A stretch of 57,617 nucleotides of DNA. Source: a virus. Positions 29,220-46,324 of this stretch are shown here, one piece after another. The position numbers were made by a program, and so were the translations under genes. The DNA is taken from IMG/VR virus record IMGVR_UViG_3300029192_000002; one strand, written 5' to 3'. Every line of letters starts with the position of its first letter. The first letter of the stretch is position 1. Under the pieces are notes generated by a model. The model worked only from the letters and a program-made list of their open reading frames with translations, did no database searches and was not told the origin of the DNA.

Positions 29220-29705
29220 ATGGAAGAAAGAGTATTATACGGATATATGGATGGTGACTGCCTACAATGTATAGAAATAACCCCCATTCCTCAGAAAATC
29301 AGAAATGAGAAAACGGGGGAAATAATAACACGCATGGTATCGGTTATTGAACAGGTGGCTGAACTGCCAACTATATATAAGCCTGTGGATGCAATAGATG
29401 AAAGTAAACAAAACGCCGATAAAGAGGGTTATGTTGTGCGCATTGTACCATACGATGCAGGGGACAGGATTTCATTCAGATACATAGAAGTCCCCGATTT
29501 TCAAAAGGTGGCACATGAGATTGAACGCTTAAAGGAGGTATTGGCAGGTAGCGATTATAAGATAATCAAATGCTACGAAGCCGCTCTAATAGGTTCTGAA
29601 ATGCCCTATGAGATAAAGGCTTTGCATAATGAAAGGCAGTTGTTGAGAGATAAAATCAATGAACTTGAAGCACGTTATGCCTCATTATATGGTGATACAC
29701 TTTAA
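29220..29705 (+). CDS. Hypothetical protein (161 aa), tail-fibre associated by position
   Basis: Packed ORF after the fibre gene. Confidence 0.5.
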   Translation: MEERVLYGYMDGDCLQCIEITPIPQKIRNEKTGEIITRMVSVIEQVAELPTIYKPVDAIDESKQNADKEGYVVRIVPYDAGDRISFRYIEVPDFQKVAHEIERLKEVLAGSDYKIIKCYEAALIGSEMPYEIKALHNERQLLRDKINELEARYASLYGDTL

Positions 29706-30087: not shown

Positions 30088-31449
30088 ATGGGATTATTAT
30101 TGGGAAGCGGAAACACGAAACCGCAATATCCTTACGACCAATGGTATGGGGTGCAAGGTGATTTCAATTCACAGGACTACAAGCTAAAGCGTGTGGGCAA
30201 TTTGGATTTGCACCGTACATTACCCATCCAAGCAAAGCTGAAACGATTTGTGGAAAACCCGGACGGTTCGGTTAAGTATTACCTTAACCAAAATGACAGC
30301 CGTAAAAAGGATTCGGGTGCAACGGCTGTGATTGACAGCACGGATGGTAATGTAATGCTTGAAAAGCCGGAATATTACTTCAAGTTGGAGATAGAGGGGA
30401 CGAAATGGATTCGTGCCTATTCCGAATATCCGTTGCCCGGCTTTATCAAGATGGAACGAAAGACGGTAAGCCCGTGGTATGCAACGGTGGATATTACCAA
30501 CTCTGTAGCCGTATCGGGTTGCTGGCTTACTTGGAATGGCAATGAGATAGCGAGAGATGCCAACGGTTTTGTTGTCCTTAAATCGAATGCCGCACAATTC
30601 AGAGGCGGTTCGGGTGCTGGTGATGCCGCTAAGGATGGCACTTACAACTCCATGTTGGGTATGCCCCGTACTTCCATTTCAAAGGCAGGTGTTCGTCCTT
30701 TCTGCAAGAACGGTACACACCACGGAGCGTACAGGGTGTACAATGAAATTGCTTGGTTGCAACGTGTGGAATACGCTTCTTTGCATTGTCAAGACACTTA
30801 CACCGAAACACTGACCGCTGACGGTTTTCATCAAGGCGGTTTGGGTAGCGGATGTGCTGTTGATGGTGGTCAGTGGAATACATGGGGCGGCTACAGACCG
30901 TTTGTCCCTTGCGGTGTTACTGCAACACTGGGAAACAACACGGGTAAGGTGTCCTACACTATCAAGGGGTGGACTGGGGGCGATAAGGTGGTGCAAGTAA
31001 CCTCTTACCGTGGCTTGGAAACTCCTTATGAATATTTGTGGTTGCTTGCCGATGATGTGCTGGTTTGGCATAAGGCAGATGTATCTATTGCCTATGTGTG
31101 TGAAGACCCGACTAAGTTCACTTCTCACTCTGACGGCGCAACTACCGTACCAACCGGATATGAAGCTATTACTGAACTCCCAAGAACTGATGGATATGTG
31201 CTTTCTATGGCTCATTCCGCTAAGGGCTATTCCTTTGCCGAAAAGGTAGGTGGAGCAAGCAACAAAGGCTATTGCGACTACTTCTATACCTGTGTAGATG
31301 ATTCAGGTTGGAGTACACCGGGATGGTATGGTGCCCTTTTGTCTGCGACTGCGGGTGTTGGTGCGGTTGCGGGTTTCGGTTGTCTGAATACGGGTAGTCG
31401 TTCCTCGTTTGCGTTTGCGTACAATGGGTTCCGCTTGTGCCGATTTTGA
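30088..31449 (+). CDS. DGR variable protein 1 (receptor-binding / tail-fibre-like; C-terminal variable region)
   Basis: 453-aa ORF at the end of the tail module. The last 40 codons (GALLSATAGVGAVAGFGCLNTGSRSSFAFAYNGFRLCRF) are the VR cognate to the TR. Confidence 0.9.
   Translation: MGLLLGSGNTKPQYPYDQWYGVQGDFNSQDYKLKRVGNLDLHRTLPIQAKLKRFVENPDGSVKYYLNQNDSRKKDSGATAVIDSTDGNVMLEKPEYYFKLEIEGTKWIRAYSEYPLPGFIKMERKTVSPWYATVDITNSVAVSGCWLTWNGNEIARDANGFVVLKSNAAQFRGGSGAGDAAKDGTYNSMLGMPRTSISKAGVRPFCKNGTHHGAYRVYNEIAWLQRVEYASLHCQDTYTETLTADGFHQGGLGSGCAVDGGQWNTWGGYRPFVPCGVTATLGNNTGKVSYTIKGWTGGDKVVQVTSYRGLETPYEYLWLLADDVLVWHKADVSIAYVCEDPTKFTSHSDGATTVPTGYEAITELPRTDGYVLSMAHSAKGYSFAEKVGGASNKGYCDYFYTCVDDSGWSTPGWYGALLSATAGVGAVAGFGCLNTGSRSSFAFAYNGFRLCRF
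31329..31436 (+). repeat. DGR variable region 1 (VR1)
   Basis: Aligns without gaps to TR 31529-31636. My hand count gives 16 mismatches, all at positions where the TR has A. Confidence 0.92.
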
Positions 31450-31467
31450 CGGACTGCAAAATTCGGC
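31439..31467 (+). promoter_or_regulatory. Hairpin immediately 3' of VR1, spanning the target stop codon
   Basis: GCCGATTTTG pairs with CAAAATTCGGC (one bulged nt) around an 8-nt loop ACGGACTG. DGR target recognition is known to use a stem-loop just downstream of the VR. Confidence 0.5.
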
Positions 31468-31528
31468 TCACGGAGCAACGAAAAAAGCGTTAGATTGAAA
31501 TATTGAAAAATTATAGGGTCGTGGCGGC

Positions 31529-31636
31529 TGGTGCCCTTTTGTCTGCGAATGCGAATAATGGTGCGAATGCGGGTTTCGGTTATCTGAATACGAATAATCG
31601 TTCCTCGAATGCGAATGCGAACAATGGGTTCCGCTT
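31529..31636 (+). repeat. DGR template repeat (TR)
   Basis: Non-coding copy of the VR. In the VR frame it reads GALLSANANNGANAGFGYLNTNNRSSNANANNGFR, with variable positions carried as AAT/AAC codons. I count 24 adenines. Confidence 0.92.
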
Positions 31637-31778
31637 TTACCGTGGTTTCAACTTATAACTGTTGCTGCCACGTCCTTACCTCACAGGAACTATCGGCACG
31701 TCTGATAGTTGGTAAAATAATACGAATTAGAACGGTGTGAGTAAGAAATTGAAAACTCTGTTTTAGAACAACGGCACA

Positions 31779-32966
31779 ATGGGCTTAGTACAAACAGAAT
31801 ATGGATTATGCTATACGGCTGATACAGGCTTTTATCAATACTCAGATTTTGATGATTGCGGTTTGTATATCGGTGATACAGGCACTCTATTTTGCTCGCA
31901 AGCAAAGAAGATAAAGAATGTCTATCACTTGATATATGAATGTTCTAACATCGTGCTGGCGCAATACAAAGCGCAAAAAGGAAAGGGTGAACGCTCAGAA
32001 ATTACAAAGTTCAATGAGAACATTTTGGAGTATTTGGACGAACTATATTGGAGTTTACGCAACGAAACATATACACCCGGAGAGTATCGGATAAAAATCA
32101 TATATGAGCCTAAAGAGAGGGTGATAATGATTGCCCCTTTCTATCCTGACAGAATTGTACACCACTGCATTATCAATGTGCTTGGGCGGTATTGGACTAA
32201 TTTCTTCATTGCGAATACATACGCTTGCATCAAAGGCAGAGGTATTCATAAGTGTATGGAAGATGTGCATACGGCTTTGGTAACAGACAGGAAAGGAACA
32301 AAATTCTGCCTGAAAATTGATATTAAGAAGTTCTATGATAATATAGACCATTCGGCATTAAAGAAGATAATCAGATATGGCATTGCAGATGAGCAATTGC
32401 TAAGGCTGTTGGATAAGATAATAGATAGTAACGGTAAAGATAAAGGGTTGCCAATAGGCAATTTCACAAGCCAATACTTCGCTAATCTCTATTTGGCATA
32501 CTTTGACCATTGGGTAAAAGAGGTGCTTTCAAAAATAGTTATGCAGCGTTTTGGTGTGAAATTCTACTTCTTCCGCTATATGGATGATATGGTAATATTG
32601 TGCGCTGACAAAGAGGCACTACATTTCATACTTGATATGATGGGGCTTTACTTGGGCGCAGAACTGAAAGTAGAGATAAAAGAAAATTGGCAGATATTCC
32701 CGGTTGATGCTCGTAGCATTGATTATGTGGGATTCAAGCAGAACCATTACGGTATATTGCTGAGAAAAGGCATATTGAAACGGTTTTACAGGAAATTCCA
32801 CCGCACCATCAAGAAATACGAAATCAATGATGAAACTGATATTAAACACCTCTTCCCGTCTGAATATGGCTGGATAATCAGATGCTCAGAGGAACATAGT
32901 AAATTCATTTTTAATAACTGTTTGAATGATGGAATCAAGTGTTTTAACTACAGGATTGCTGGCTAA
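31779..32966 (+). CDS. DGR reverse transcriptase
   Basis: RT motifs appear in order: PKERVIMIAPFYPDRIVHH, LKIDIKKFYDNIDH, GLPIGNFTSQYFANLYL (the IGxxxSQ signature typical of DGR RTs) and FRYMDDMVIL (YxDD). The conserved core begins near residue 40, so the true start may lie downstream of 31779. Confidence 0.92.
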   Translation: MGLVQTEYGLCYTADTGFYQYSDFDDCGLYIGDTGTLFCSQAKKIKNVYHLIYECSNIVLAQYKAQKGKGERSEITKFNENILEYLDELYWSLRNETYTPGEYRIKIIYEPKERVIMIAPFYPDRIVHHCIINVLGRYWTNFFIANTYACIKGRGIHKCMEDVHTALVTDRKGTKFCLKIDIKKFYDNIDHSALKKIIRYGIADEQLLRLLDKIIDSNGKDKGLPIGNFTSQYFANLYLAYFDHWVKEVLSKIVMQRFGVKFYFFRYMDDMVILCADKEALHFILDMMGLYLGAELKVEIKENWQIFPVDARSIDYVGFKQNHYGILLRKGILKRFYRKFHRTIKKYEINDETDIKHLFPSEYGWIIRCSEEHSKFIFNNCLNDGIKCFNYRIAG

Positions 32967-33357
32967 GACCAAGCCGGAAGTTATAGACAATCTTAACAAC
33001 GGTCAAGGTACGTTCCTCTATAACCATAACATTAAAGAGGTCAAGGTTATTGCTGACAAAGAGGGCGGTATTGAAATTACCACTGATGCGGAACGTGCTA
33101 CGGGCACGATGTTCCAATATGATAGCGTGAGGGTGGAATATCCAAAAACGGCTGATAATATTTTCAGTACGTTGCTTACTGCAAGATACCCGGCTAAGAC
33201 AGAAAGCAAGTTGGTAAACGAATATCAGTCTGCCATGCTGGGCTTGCTTGCCGAAAGTGCGAAAGCCCCCTATGAGGACTTTTTGAAAGACCGTTTGGCT
33301 ATCCGTGAAATGGTGGATGCCGATTGTGAAACCTATAACATACCGATGGACTTATGA
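32926..33357 (+). CDS. Hypothetical protein (143 aa)
   Basis: ORF overlapping the RT 3' end by 41 nt. It is acidic and does not look like a four-helix-bundle Avd. Confidence 0.5.
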   Translation: MMESSVLTTGLLAKTKPEVIDNLNNGQGTFLYNHNIKEVKVIADKEGGIEITTDAERATGTMFQYDSVRVEYPKTADNIFSTLLTARYPAKTESKLVNEYQSAMLGLLAESAKAPYEDFLKDRLAIREMVDADCETYNIPMDL

Positions 33358-35882: not shown

Positions 35883-35954
35883 GGCTCTGTAGTTCAACGG
35901 ATAGAACAAGAATTTCCTAAATTTTAGATAGGGGTTCGATTCCCCTCGGAGCTA
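35883..35954 (+). tRNA. tRNA-Arg (anticodon CCT)
   Basis: Hand-folded cloverleaf with a 7-bp acceptor stem (two G-T wobbles) and a D arm GTTC/GAAC. The anticodon stem is AGAAT/ATTTT with loop TTCCTAA (U33, CCT, A37). The T arm is AGGGG-TTCGATT-CCCCT and the discriminator is A. No CCA is encoded. Confidence 0.85.
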
Positions 35955-36060: not shown

Positions 36061-37383
36061 ATGGCTACATTCAAAGCAGAGGTGTACGCTCACCAAAAGA
36101 GGGCTGACGGCACATATAATATAAAGATAAGGGTTATACACCAAAAGAGGAAAAAGTACATCCCGACCACTTACTACGTGACAAAGGATGATTTGACACG
36201 CACGACTTTCAAGCTGAAAAACCAAAAGTACATAGATGCCACCGATGATATGATAAAAAAATACCGTTCCATTTGTGACCGCATGGGGGAACGGCTTAAA
36301 TCCATGACCGTTGAGCAGGTGGTAGATGCAATCACTAACGACAATGGGGAACACTTCGATTTGGATATAGTGGCTTATGCCCGTCAATATATATCGCACT
36401 TAAAGGAAACCGGGCATACAGGTAATGCGCTTTCTTACCAAGTAGCCATTAACAACCTTGTACGCTTTGTTGGCAGGGATAGCGTGAGCATAAAAGAAAT
36501 CACGGTTAAGTTTATCAATGATTGGATAAAGTGGATAAAGGAGAATCCGGCACGTTCCAAACCCGAAGCCAATCACGGAGAAAGGGCACAGAGCCTATAT
36601 ATATCCCAGCTAAGAGCCATATATAACCGGGCAAAGAAAGAGTTTAACGATGAGGATGCCGGACTGATACGCATTCCCTATTCTCCTTTTAAGAGGGTGG
36701 AAATTCCCAAAATACCCGTTACAAGGAAAAGGGCTATTTCTACGGATTTACTTCGTAAATTTTCGGAACTGCCTTATTCTTTGATTATGCAACCGGGGAC
36801 AAACAGGTACAATCTCGCAAAGGATGTCTTTCTTTTGAGCTTCTGTCTAATTGGAATGAATGCGGTAGATTTGTACACTTGTACGGATTTGAAGAAAGGA
36901 CGTATTATATACCAACGGACAAAAACCAAGAATCGGAGAGCTGACAAAGCGGAAATGTCTGTGAGGATAGAGCCGGAACTAAAAGCCCTTATGAAAAAAT
37001 ATAAAGACCAGACCGGGCAAAGGGTTTTTAATTTCTACAAGCTGTATTCAAGCGTGGATAGCTTTACGGCTGCAATCAACAAGGGCTTGAAAAAGATTGG
37101 TGATGATTTAGGAATAGATGATTTGGAGTTTTACGCAGCCCGCCATACATGGGCAACCATTGCAAGTAATGAAGCCGGAGTAGATAAGTACACCGTTCAC
37201 ACAGCCCTTAACCACGTGGACGAAAATATGAGAGTGACGGATATTTATATTGCGAAATCATGGGATAGTATAGATGCCGCCAACCGTAAAGTATTGGATT
37301 ATGTCAAGCTGTCTTTGGATGATGTAACAGAAAAGAAGTATATACCCAAAAATAAACGTGTTTTGCCTAAGCAAAATTTGTAA
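36061..37383 (+). CDS. int: Tyrosine site-specific integrase (Bacteroidota type with N-terminal arm-binding domain)
   Basis: The N-terminus MATFKAEVYAHQKRADGTYNIKIRVIHQKRKKYIPT is typical of Bacteroides-type integrases. The C-terminal catalytic region has YAARHTWATIA and ALNHVDENMRVTDIYI (H-x-x-R ... H ... Y). Confidence 0.9.
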   Translation: MATFKAEVYAHQKRADGTYNIKIRVIHQKRKKYIPTTYYVTKDDLTRTTFKLKNQKYIDATDDMIKKYRSICDRMGERLKSMTVEQVVDAITNDNGEHFDLDIVAYARQYISHLKETGHTGNALSYQVAINNLVRFVGRDSVSIKEITVKFINDWIKWIKENPARSKPEANHGERAQSLYISQLRAIYNRAKKEFNDEDAGLIRIPYSPFKRVEIPKIPVTRKRAISTDLLRKFSELPYSLIMQPGTNRYNLAKDVFLLSFCLIGMNAVDLYTCTDLKKGRIIYQRTKTKNRRADKAEMSVRIEPELKALMKKYKDQTGQRVFNFYKLYSSVDSFTAAINKGLKKIGDDLGIDDLEFYAARHTWATIASNEAGVDKYTVHTALNHVDENMRVTDIYIAKSWDSIDAANRKVLDYVKLSLDDVTEKKYIPKNKRVLPKQNL

Positions 37384-44396: not shown

Positions 44397-45125
44397 ATGA
44401 AACTGATAGTTCTTGGTTCAAGTAGTAATGGCAACTGTTACATTTTGGATAACGGTAATGAAGCTCTGATTATAGAGGCTGGAATCCGTTTCCAAGAAGT
44501 CAAGAAAGCATTGGATTTCAATCTGAGAAAGGTTGTAGGGTGTGTGGTGACACACGCCCACAACGACCACGCCAAATATATCAAGGCAATGGTGGATAGT
44601 GGATTTTACACGTTGGCATTGCGGGAGGTATGGACTGCAAAGAGTGTTTGGGATTCTCGTTCTTTAGTGGTTAAAGAGGGCAAAGGCTATAAGATGGGTA
44701 ATTTTAAGGTACTTCCTTTTCCAGCTTGCCATGATGTGCCATGTGTCGGCTATCTGATAGACCACCCCGATATGGGAAAGATGGTATTTCTTACCGATAG
44801 CTGTATGTGCGAATATCAGTTCAAGGGGCTTAACCATGTTCTGATAGAGTGCAATTACTCTGATAAGAAGCTCATCGAGGCGATTACAGCCGGGCGCACG
44901 TTGCCCTCACAGCGTGAACGCCTGCTTACCTCACACATGGAGCTTACTACGTGCAAGGGCTTTTTGGAAGCAAACGACTTATCCCATGTTTCAGAAATCG
45001 TGCTTTTGCACCTTTCCGAGAATAATAGCGATGAGCCTTACTTCATATCGGAAGTGGAAAGGCATACTGGGAAAGTGGTTTATGCGGCAAAGCCGGGTTT
45101 AATGATTGATTTAGATAAGACATAA
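44397..45125 (+). CDS. Metallo-beta-lactamase-fold hydrolase (probable nuclease partner of RecT)
   Basis: HxHxDH motif (VVTHAHNDHAKY), directly downstream of recT. Confidence 0.78.
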   Translation: MKLIVLGSSSNGNCYILDNGNEALIIEAGIRFQEVKKALDFNLRKVVGCVVTHAHNDHAKYIKAMVDSGFYTLALREVWTAKSVWDSRSLVVKEGKGYKMGNFKVLPFPACHDVPCVGYLIDHPDMGKMVFLTDSCMCEYQFKGLNHVLIECNYSDKKLIEAITAGRTLPSQRERLLTSHMELTTCKGFLEANDLSHVSEIVLLHLSENNSDEPYFISEVERHTGKVVYAAKPGLMIDLDKT

Positions 45126-45691: not shown

Positions 45692-46324
45692 ATGAAAGTA
45701 GAAATTGAAGAAAGCAAGTTGCAAACAGCTTATGCAAACGCTTGTGACGGAGTTAAGGATTTTATGGAAAGCCTGTTTGGGAAAAAGGTGTTTGAGGCTG
45801 CAAAGCCCACGTTGGACGATTACAAGACTATCCGCACGTATGAGGATGCTTGTGAGGCATTGGGAGAAACGCCAATCCTTTCTGAAAACAGAAAAAAAGT
45901 TCTTTGTGCAAAGTTTCCAGACCACTACGATTTTCGGCAAAATATGCCTAATCACATAATAGCCCTTATGAAGTTGGAAACTATTAGCCGGGCTTTGTGG
46001 GGTAGAAATTTCCAACCAAAGCCGGATGGAGAGGGAAGCAAAGTATATTGGTATCCGTGGTTTGCCTTATGGACTAAGAAAGAGGTTGAGGATATGAATC
46101 CCGAACAAAGAGGTGCCCTTTTGTCTGCGAATGCGTTTTTTGGTGCGAGTGCGGGTTTCGGTTATCTGCATACGTATTATCGTTCCTCGTATGCGTCTGC
46201 GTACGGTGGGTTCCGCTTGTGCCAAGAAACGGAAGAAAAGGCTAAGTATTTCGGGCAGCAATTCATTGAACTTTGGGCTGAATATTTGAAATTCAACTTT
46301 TCCGTTGGAAATCGTTTGAAATAA
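45692..46324 (+). CDS. DGR variable protein 2 (210 aa, no signal peptide, in the early module)
   Basis: Residues ...GALLSANAFFGASAGFGYLHTYYRSSYASAYGGFRLCQ... are encoded by a second copy of the TR sequence in the same codon phase. They are followed by a 35-aa C-terminal tail. Confidence 0.85.
   Translation: MKVEIEESKLQTAYANACDGVKDFMESLFGKKVFEAAKPTLDDYKTIRTYEDACEALGETPILSENRKKVLCAKFPDHYDFRQNMPNHIIALMKLETISRALWGRNFQPKPDGEGSKVYWYPWFALWTKKEVEDMNPEQRGALLSANAFFGASAGFGYLHTYYRSSYASAYGGFRLCQETEEKAKYFGQQFIELWAEYLKFNFSVGNRLK
46112..46218 (+). repeat. DGR variable region 2 (VR2), remote from the RT/TR
   Basis: Aligns without gaps to TR 31530-31636. My hand count gives 14 mismatches, all at TR adenines. 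It shares the VR-type 3' junction CCGCTT-GTGCC with VR1; the TR has CCGCTT-TTACC. Confidence 0.9.

Follow-up and report, generated by a model that had tools for sequence, protein, structure and literature searches.

A template repeat with two variable repeats: a diversity-generating retroelement in a Versailles-like Bacteroides phage

The DNA analysed here, IMG/VR record IMGVR_UViG_3300029192_000002, is a stretch of 57,617 nt ('the window', to whose positions all coordinates refer) and represents an essentially complete temperate phage genome, which is about 93% identical to, and circularly permuted with respect to, that of Bacteroides phage Versailles (ON453897.1), a spontaneously inducible prophage of B. 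caecimuris I48, a member of the OMM12 mouse consortium. At the end of the tail module lies a cassette with the anatomy of a diversity-generating retroelement (DGR), i.e. a tail-module gene (target gene 1) ending in a variable repeat (VR1), a non-coding template repeat (TR) and a gene for a reverse transcriptase (RT), and a second variable repeat (VR2) is found in a small gene of the early operon (target gene 2; table 1). The tail module runs from the tape measure gene through those of a tail protein and a 1801-aa protein to target gene 1, and 3' of the RT gene three small open reading frames (ORFs) are followed by the endolysin gene. Versailles shows the identical layout of TR, VR1 and VR2, with its homolog of target 1, annotated 'tail protein', positioned after tape measure and tail genes. 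Its element carries just the GenBank labels 'tail protein' and 'reverse transcriptase', and we found no mention of a DGR in Versailles in the searchable literature.

Table 1. Components of the retroelement and its two target genes in the window (IMH, initiation of mutagenic homing; IMH*, its counterpart at the TR)
Feature	Positions	Strand	Observations
Target gene 1 (453 aa)	30088-31449	+	ORF; PHROG 5302 'tail protein', E 2e-122; closes the tail module
VR1, variable repeat	31329-31436	+	aligns with the TR without gaps (offset 200); all 16 mismatches hit TR adenines
IMH-like 3' boundary of VR1, TTGTGCCGAT	31435-31444	+	primer strand exactly complementary to its first 8 nt
Possible DNA hairpin just after VR1, GCCGATTTTG...CAAAATTCGGC	31439-31467	+	DNA fold -10.1 kcal/mol, z -3.3
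Upstream strand of long-range RNA duplex, cPRT-Stop-like	31516-31528	+	ends 0-3 nt before the TR; RNAduplex
TR, template repeat	31529-31636	+	24 A, 22 of them in 11 AAY codons
IMH*-like TR flank, TTTTACCGTG, template strand of predicted template:primer duplex	31635-31644	+	pairs with 31770-31779 at 7/10
Spacer RNA between TR and RT	31645-31778	+	duplex strand 31663-31677, hairpin 31677-31714, helix 31727-31738/31755-31766
Predicted primer strand, AACGGCACAA	31770-31779	+	its final A doubles as the A of the RT start codon
DGR reverse transcriptase (395 aa)	31779-32966	+	Pfam RVT_1 5e-17; IGNFTSQ and YMDD; Brt-like
Target gene 2 (210 aa)	45692-46324	+	ORF; PHROG 11581, E 4e-79; early recombination/replication operon
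VR2, second variable repeat	46112-46218	+	14 mismatches to TR, all at adenines; P=1.6e-11
IMH-like boundary of VR2, TTGTGCC	46217-46223	+	7 nt complementary to the primer strand

The repeat search returned a single long direct repeat (31329-31442 and 31529-31642), gapless and with a spacing of 200. The first-pass annotation had described VR1 and TR as an indel-free pair 200 bp apart, with 16 mismatches that all fall on the 24 adenines of the TR and with AAT and AAC as the variable codons, and all of this was reproduced exactly in our recount. The mismatches within the core (TR positions 31529-31636) comprise eight A>G, seven A>T and one A>C change, which leaves VR1 with eight adenines, and the chance that all 16 would hit an A is 1.7e-13 (hypergeometric). 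All of them lie at codon positions 1 or 2 of ORF 30088-31449, whose last 40 or so codons constitute VR1. Correspondingly, 22 of the 24 TR adenines belong to the 11 AAT/AAC codons and none occupies codon position 3; read in the VR frame, the TR translates as GALLSANANNGANAGFGYLNTNNRSSNANANNGFR. Similarity continues for 6 nt beyond 31436/31636; over this stretch, two differences are fixed (T>G at 31637 and A>G at 31639). These separate every VR from every TR in the family, which was sampled by fetching 80 loci out of 333 RT relatives in IMG/VR, and therefore represent an IMH/IMH*-type boundary rather than noise. A 51-aa ORF with a TTG start (31503-31658) overlaps the TR and corresponds to the TR read in the VR frame; no support was found for its being a gene.

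Searching with the conserved 5' end of the repeat revealed the third copy, VR2, 14.6 kb away from the TR. VR2 is internal to its gene, with 35 codons following it, and differs from VR1 at 16 positions, from which it follows that the two repeats were written independently. Residues 73-178 of target 2 align with residues 342-452 of target 1 (hhalign probability 98.3%), i.e. the two proteins share a C-terminal variable domain. The first-pass annotation had seen the phage as a receptor-binding-protein diversifier, a reading that is incomplete in so far as the same TR also serves target 2, which is encoded outside the structural genes, and as the element comes without the accessory protein Avd.

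The RT motifs IGNFTSQ and YMDD, already noted in the ORF downstream of the TR, align with IGSLTSQ and YMDD of Brt, the RT of the prototype DGR of phage BPP-1. Among solved structures the best match is PDB entry 8ub7_A (E 1.4e-31, residues 43-348), a chain verified as BPP-1 Brt, whereas no group II intron or retron-type RT structure does better than E 7e-9; in tblastn, Brt and the window RT share 33% identity (E 1.5e-34). The window RT thus stands closer to Brt than to group II intron or retron RTs, a class assignment that is based on search scores and motifs. If the RT instead came from another retroelement or defence system, i.e. a group II intron, a retron or a defence-associated RT system (DRT), the repeats would have to be an unrelated duplication. 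NCBIfam and PADLOC do yield weak generic matches to group II, Drt and retron models, PADLOC finding generic RT matches only, but the NCBIfam scores fall far short of the curated cut-offs (108 vs 300 bits for group II model TIGR04416, 64 vs 390 for Drt2 and 51 vs 235 for retrons). Moreover, Brt remains the best match, Rfam detected neither group II intron RNA nor retron RNA in the whole window (its single match being a tRNA), and strictly adenine-specific repeats are not explained by any such system, which leaves this alternative effectively refuted. The two outcomes that the first-pass annotation had named as fatal to a DGR, an RT grouping with those of group II introns or retrons and a mismatch spectrum without adenine specificity, were thus both checked, and each check favoured a DGR.

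In Versailles, 11 mismatches in VR1 and 14 in VR2 distinguish the variable repeats from the phage's own TR, again all at adenines. Between Versailles and the window the VR contents are entirely different, whereas the TR cores differ by just three substitutions, at positions 17 (window G, Versailles T), 60 (A, G) and 94 (A, T). At each of these positions both VRs carry the allele of their own phage's TR, except where a TR adenine was itself mutated (position 94 in window VR2); information therefore moved from the TR into the VRs after the two phages had diverged. The mismatch spectrum is strictly adenine-specific in the window (16/16 in VR1 and 14/14 in VR2), and across 44 TR/VR pairs of the family 555 of 580 mismatches lie at TR adenines, spread over A>T (194), A>C (186) and A>G (175). 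Nearly every VR is different (43 of 45 are distinct), with a column entropy of about 1.6-1.97 bits at 19 of the 24 TR-adenine columns and near zero at most others; in 22 distinct TRs, by comparison, entropy at the adenine columns does not exceed 1 bit and is mostly below 0.6. The protein carrying VR2 falls into 3,388 clusters at 90% identity, and in 98 cluster representatives (the top matches, all 210 aa long and 92-96% identical) only the codons with TR adenines vary, with the rest being invariant or nearly so.

Since the tips of tail fibres are commonly recombination hot spots, diversifying selection together with recombination between phages might be invoked to explain such hypervariability without reverse transcription. 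Yet the only columns to vary are those with an A in a non-coding template located 200 bp from VR1, the identical pattern recurs in two unrelated genes, and TR polymorphisms have been copied into both, so that we give this explanation practically no credence. Judged by these sequences, the DGR lineage is active in nature. The same lineage was also found in metagenome-assembled genomes (MAGs) of Prevotella, where the copies presumably are prophages.

Covariation also gives a picture of the RNA of the element. An alignment of 28 distinct spacer sequences, folded with RNAalifold, supports a structure of 31 pairs, in which 97% of the cells are paired (24-53% when the partners are slid) and 11 pairs change on both sides, a number reached by none of 500 shuffles. 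In addition, RNAduplex detects the long-range duplex between 31516-28 and spacer positions 31663-77 in nearly all family members, with different but compensating sequences, e.g. GGGTTGTGGTGTTCA:TGAACACCACAACC in contig L042 and GGTTTCAGGGATCA:TGATCCCTGAGACC in contig L077; in its position this duplex corresponds to the Bordetella 'cPRT Stop' duplex. For the putative template:primer helix, RNAalifold chose the core CCGU:ACGG, which is identical in the 28 sequences, and the spacer ends in AACGGCAC(A)A, of which AACGGCAC is invariant in 28/28 distinct spacers. A scan for sigma-70 promoters and terminators around the TR was uninformative, its model being ill-suited to Bacteroides promoters.

At the 3' boundary, VRs of the whole family read ...CCGCTT-GTGCC and TRs ...CCGCTT-T(T/A)TACC. 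The reverse complement of the predicted primer strand, TTGTGCCGTT, equals the VR flank over a contiguous stretch of 8 nt (window VR1), 10 nt (Versailles) or 7 nt (VR2). Of 21 family configurations, all but that of window VR2 show better pairing of the primer strand to the VR flank than to the TR flank. These relations argue for an IMH/IMH*-type, direction-setting boundary with a primer that is more complementary to the VR flank. In BPP-1, TR117-129 pairs with Sp47-56 through seven canonical and three non-standard pairs, and cDNA is primed by Sp A56. Using the BPP-1 sequence, we compared the reverse complement of Sp47-56 with both flanks and found agreement at 9/10 positions for the VR IMH but at only 6/10 for the TR IMH*; complementarity of the spacer to the VR flank has been proposed as the basis of homing directionality in BPP-1 (Naorem et al. 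2017). The likeness suggests that the window element follows this known logic, with the primer strand relocated to the 3' end of the spacer.

With these elements, and by analogy with BPP-1 for the priming nucleotide and the integration step, a mechanism can be proposed. An RNA would be transcribed from about 31516 to at least 31779, and the duplex 31516-28 : 31663-77 would close the TR into a loop. The 3' flank of the TR (31635-44) would pair imperfectly with the last 10 nt of the spacer (31770-79), which may prime cDNA synthesis by the RT with a start near C31634. Copying of the TR would be faithful except at adenines, where any base could be inserted. The RNA-linked cDNA could then pair perfectly with the GTGCC flank of both VRs, which would set the direction of transfer, and would be integrated in place of VR1 in the tail-module protein and of VR2 in the 210-aa early-operon protein. 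Per target, up to 12-13 residues would be randomised, with stop codons being impossible.

No counterpart of the accessory proteins of other DGRs came to light. A Pfam scan covering 44 small ORFs listed 25 of 35 families (to E 0.016), with neither Avd_like nor HRDC among them, tblastn with BPP-1 Avd stayed at E>2, and the ORFs flanking the cassette had no Pfam, NCBIfam or PDB match. This agrees with an earlier survey (Wu et al. 2018, PMC5758913), in which Architecture A, without any accessory gene (Avd, HRDC, MSL, CH1), makes up 29% of DGRs and the Avd-less Lineage 3 includes a sublineage, 3A, that is confined to Bacteroides and relatives. Sharing with Architecture A/Lineage 3 the target-TR-RT cassette without avd, HRDC or MSL, the Bacteroides-associated host and a second target that lies apart from the cassette but within the one prophage, the window element fits this group as far as architecture and host can place it. 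Its RT would be expected to work independently of Avd. A candidate for replacing Avd or for binding RNA is the N-terminal extension of about 40 aa (31779-31904), which has no counterpart in Brt. It evolves as coding sequence (12 synonymous vs 9 non-synonymous changes against Versailles) and contains the motif DF(E/D)DCGxYxGDTG, which is kept throughout the lineage, even in relatives only about 70% identical. A 143-aa ORF (32926-33357; PHROG 11557, function unknown) overlaps the 3' end of the RT gene by 41 nt. Its candidacy as an unrecognised accessory gene is neither backed nor contradicted by the data; searches of Pfam, the PDB and PADLOC gave no match for it, and its sequence is unlike that of a helical bundle.

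Could the TR/VR pattern be the record of past activity, left behind by a copy that can no longer retrohome, for instance after losing an accessory factor? That neither Avd nor HRDC was detected would suit such a relic, as would the eroded TRs of some relatives, with only 10 adenines. The RT ORF is intact, however, with its catalytic motifs, and is under purifying selection (102 synonymous vs 35 non-synonymous changes against Versailles), the TR retains its 24 adenines, and all RNA elements are conserved. Furthermore, phages diverged by only about 7% have wholly different VRs and propagated TR polymorphisms, and the entire Avd-less lineage carries the same signature. A relic thus seems very unlikely to us, and we are highly confident that the element is a functional DGR of the accessory-gene-less type (target-TR-RT).

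The AlphaFold2 (AF2) model of target 1 (predicted TM score, pTM, 0.79) resembles crAss-like tail-fibre proteins (TM 0.81, E 9e-33) in BFVD, where further matches include many 'tail collar fiber' proteins as well as a small Treponema variable protein-like (TvpA-labelled) protein. Together with its place as last gene of the tail module and its PHROG 5302 membership, this resemblance makes a receptor-binding role of target 1 a reasonable proposal, and to this extent the receptor-binding-protein part of the first-pass annotation stands. The structure prediction that it had suggested for the C-terminus gave a tail-fibre-like model overall. The variable domain itself would likely adopt a C-type lectin fold. 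In Pfam and NCBIfam searches with both targets and five neighbouring ORFs, the sole match was RVT_1, in the RT, and profile hidden Markov models of both target families found chance-level matches only among PDB sequences.

Several observations weigh against parts of this picture. In the target 1 model the VR region has a predicted local distance difference test score (pLDDT) of about 30, and Foldseek found no PDB structure matching this model with E<0.07; for target 2, the AF2 model, built from a shallow alignment, is unusable (pLDDT 42), which bears on the lectin fold in particular. As for nucleic-acid structure, the template:primer helix is invariant and thereby beyond a test by covariation, and a DNA hairpin after the VR is significant at window VR1 only, reaching significance neither at VR1 of Versailles nor at VR2 of either phage. 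The evidence for activity seems to speak for populations and the lineage as a whole rather than for this individual copy. A very divergent accessory protein might have escaped the Pfam listing with its 25 of 35 families, and Versailles would lend itself to asking how priming and processivity are achieved by a DGR RT that lacks Avd.

Target 2 belongs to a broad family of proteins of about 200 aa (517 representatives at 50% identity) without a Pfam or PDB match. According to the Versailles annotation and one independent contig, in both of which its context is conserved, the early operon has the order repressor | regulator - SbcC-like - RecT - metallo-beta-lactamase - NinB - target 2 - two unknowns - replisome organizer - helicase loader - ParB. 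Inspection by eye showed no signal peptide in target 2. Because of its site between NinB and the replisome organizer, the lack of a visible signal peptide and its massive natural diversification, target 2 could be a cytoplasmic, early-expressed binder, rather than a virion or receptor-binding protein, that is hypermutated against e.g. variable host defence or host-takeover targets, but we hold this to be a rather unlikely, tentative assignment. On the same footing stand more conservative readings, in which target 2 would be a superinfection-exclusion factor or a tail or decoration protein whose gene lies apart from those for other structural proteins. Two genes upstream of target gene 2, the metallo-beta-lactamase-fold protein (44397-45125) may be an anti-defence nuclease or the usual hydrolase of recombination modules; its relative on contig L084 has a faint precomputed match to the Anti-Pycsar Apyc1 family.

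The BPP-1 element (mtd-avd-TR-brt) offers a close comparison. In both elements a tail protein gene carries the VR at its 3' end and the TR precedes the RT gene, mutagenesis is adenine-specific at AAY codons, the RTs are homologous, an IMH/IMH* boundary is present, part of the spacer forms an imperfect duplex with the TR flank (7 canonical pairs out of 10) and a better one with the VR flank, and a segment upstream of the TR forms a duplex with the spacer. Unlike BPP-1, however, the window element is without avd, has an RT with the N-terminal extension and serves two targets; its primer strand abuts the RT ATG at the 3' end of the spacer, whereas the BPP-1 primer is Sp47-56 of 144; the RNA elements come in another order, and no clear GC-rich cruciform follows the window VRs. 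One TR with two targets, one of them distant from the cassette, is also known from the Bacuni phages of B. uniformis (PMC8143477) and the tentaclin phages nd4 and nd12 (PMC10743442). In contrast to the window, those cassettes encode Avd, and their targets are read as adhesion or receptor-binding proteins, whereas the second target here is a small protein of an early recombination/replication operon. In our search of the literature we found no described DGR with a second target in the early operon, and the tentaclin paper (PMC10743442) calls the role of mutating two different genes unclear.

The window element is thus an Avd-less Bacteroides-phage DGR of a well-known kind, with the early-operon second target as its sole unusual point. 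Since DGRs of gut Bacteroides phages are already well catalogued, the interest of this one is modest and lies in an unannotated DGR in an OMM12 model prophage, an RNA map supported by covariation and the early-operon second target. With Versailles residing in the widely used OMM12 gnotobiotic mouse model, an Avd-independent, two-target phage DGR could become tractable in vivo, where one might also ask why a phage diversifies a small early-operon protein besides a tail protein. For mutagenesis, the RNA map singles out three concrete targets: the stop-like duplex, the hairpin, and the primer strand that directly adjoins the RT start codon.

Some minor observations concern relatives of the element. 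In L005:748-862 (identical in L007) and L039:3751-3865, the RT-proximal repeat has a TR-type flank but 10 adenines instead of 22-24, and the L005/L007 repeat, aligned in register with the Versailles TR, has 12 of its 13 differences at canonical adenine positions; adenine mutagenesis or replacement by a VR sequence seems to have altered the TR itself here ('eroded TR'), the alternative being an assembly chimera of repeats 200 bp apart. Public MAG bins under the names Oribacterium, Clostridiales and Lachnospiraceae hold contigs L086, L090 and L092, on which this DGR lineage of Bacteroidota phages is present; these probably are mis-binned phage contigs. A genome scan with a spacer motif was discarded, as three of its eight matches were due to chance (Formosa, L088) and the pattern missed Versailles-type spacers.

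Elsewhere in the window, the 161-aa ORF at 29220-29705 (PHROG 17180, function unknown) lies between the gene of the 1801-aa tail protein and a 96-aa ORF preceding target gene 1 and apparently is without a counterpart in Versailles, where the gap measures only about 170 nt. The tRNA at 35883-35954 (Rfam 63 bits; tRNA-Arg in Versailles) directly precedes the integrase gene (36061-37383), and this probably is the attachment-site region marking the ends of the prophage. Finally, between 4756 and 10334 the structural module, which is on the plus strand, is broken by about a dozen small minus-strand genes, with the portal region on one side and the head genes on the other. This block has the look of a cargo or moron island, and in Versailles an ADP-ribosylglycohydrolase and a DNA methyltransferase are among its genes.

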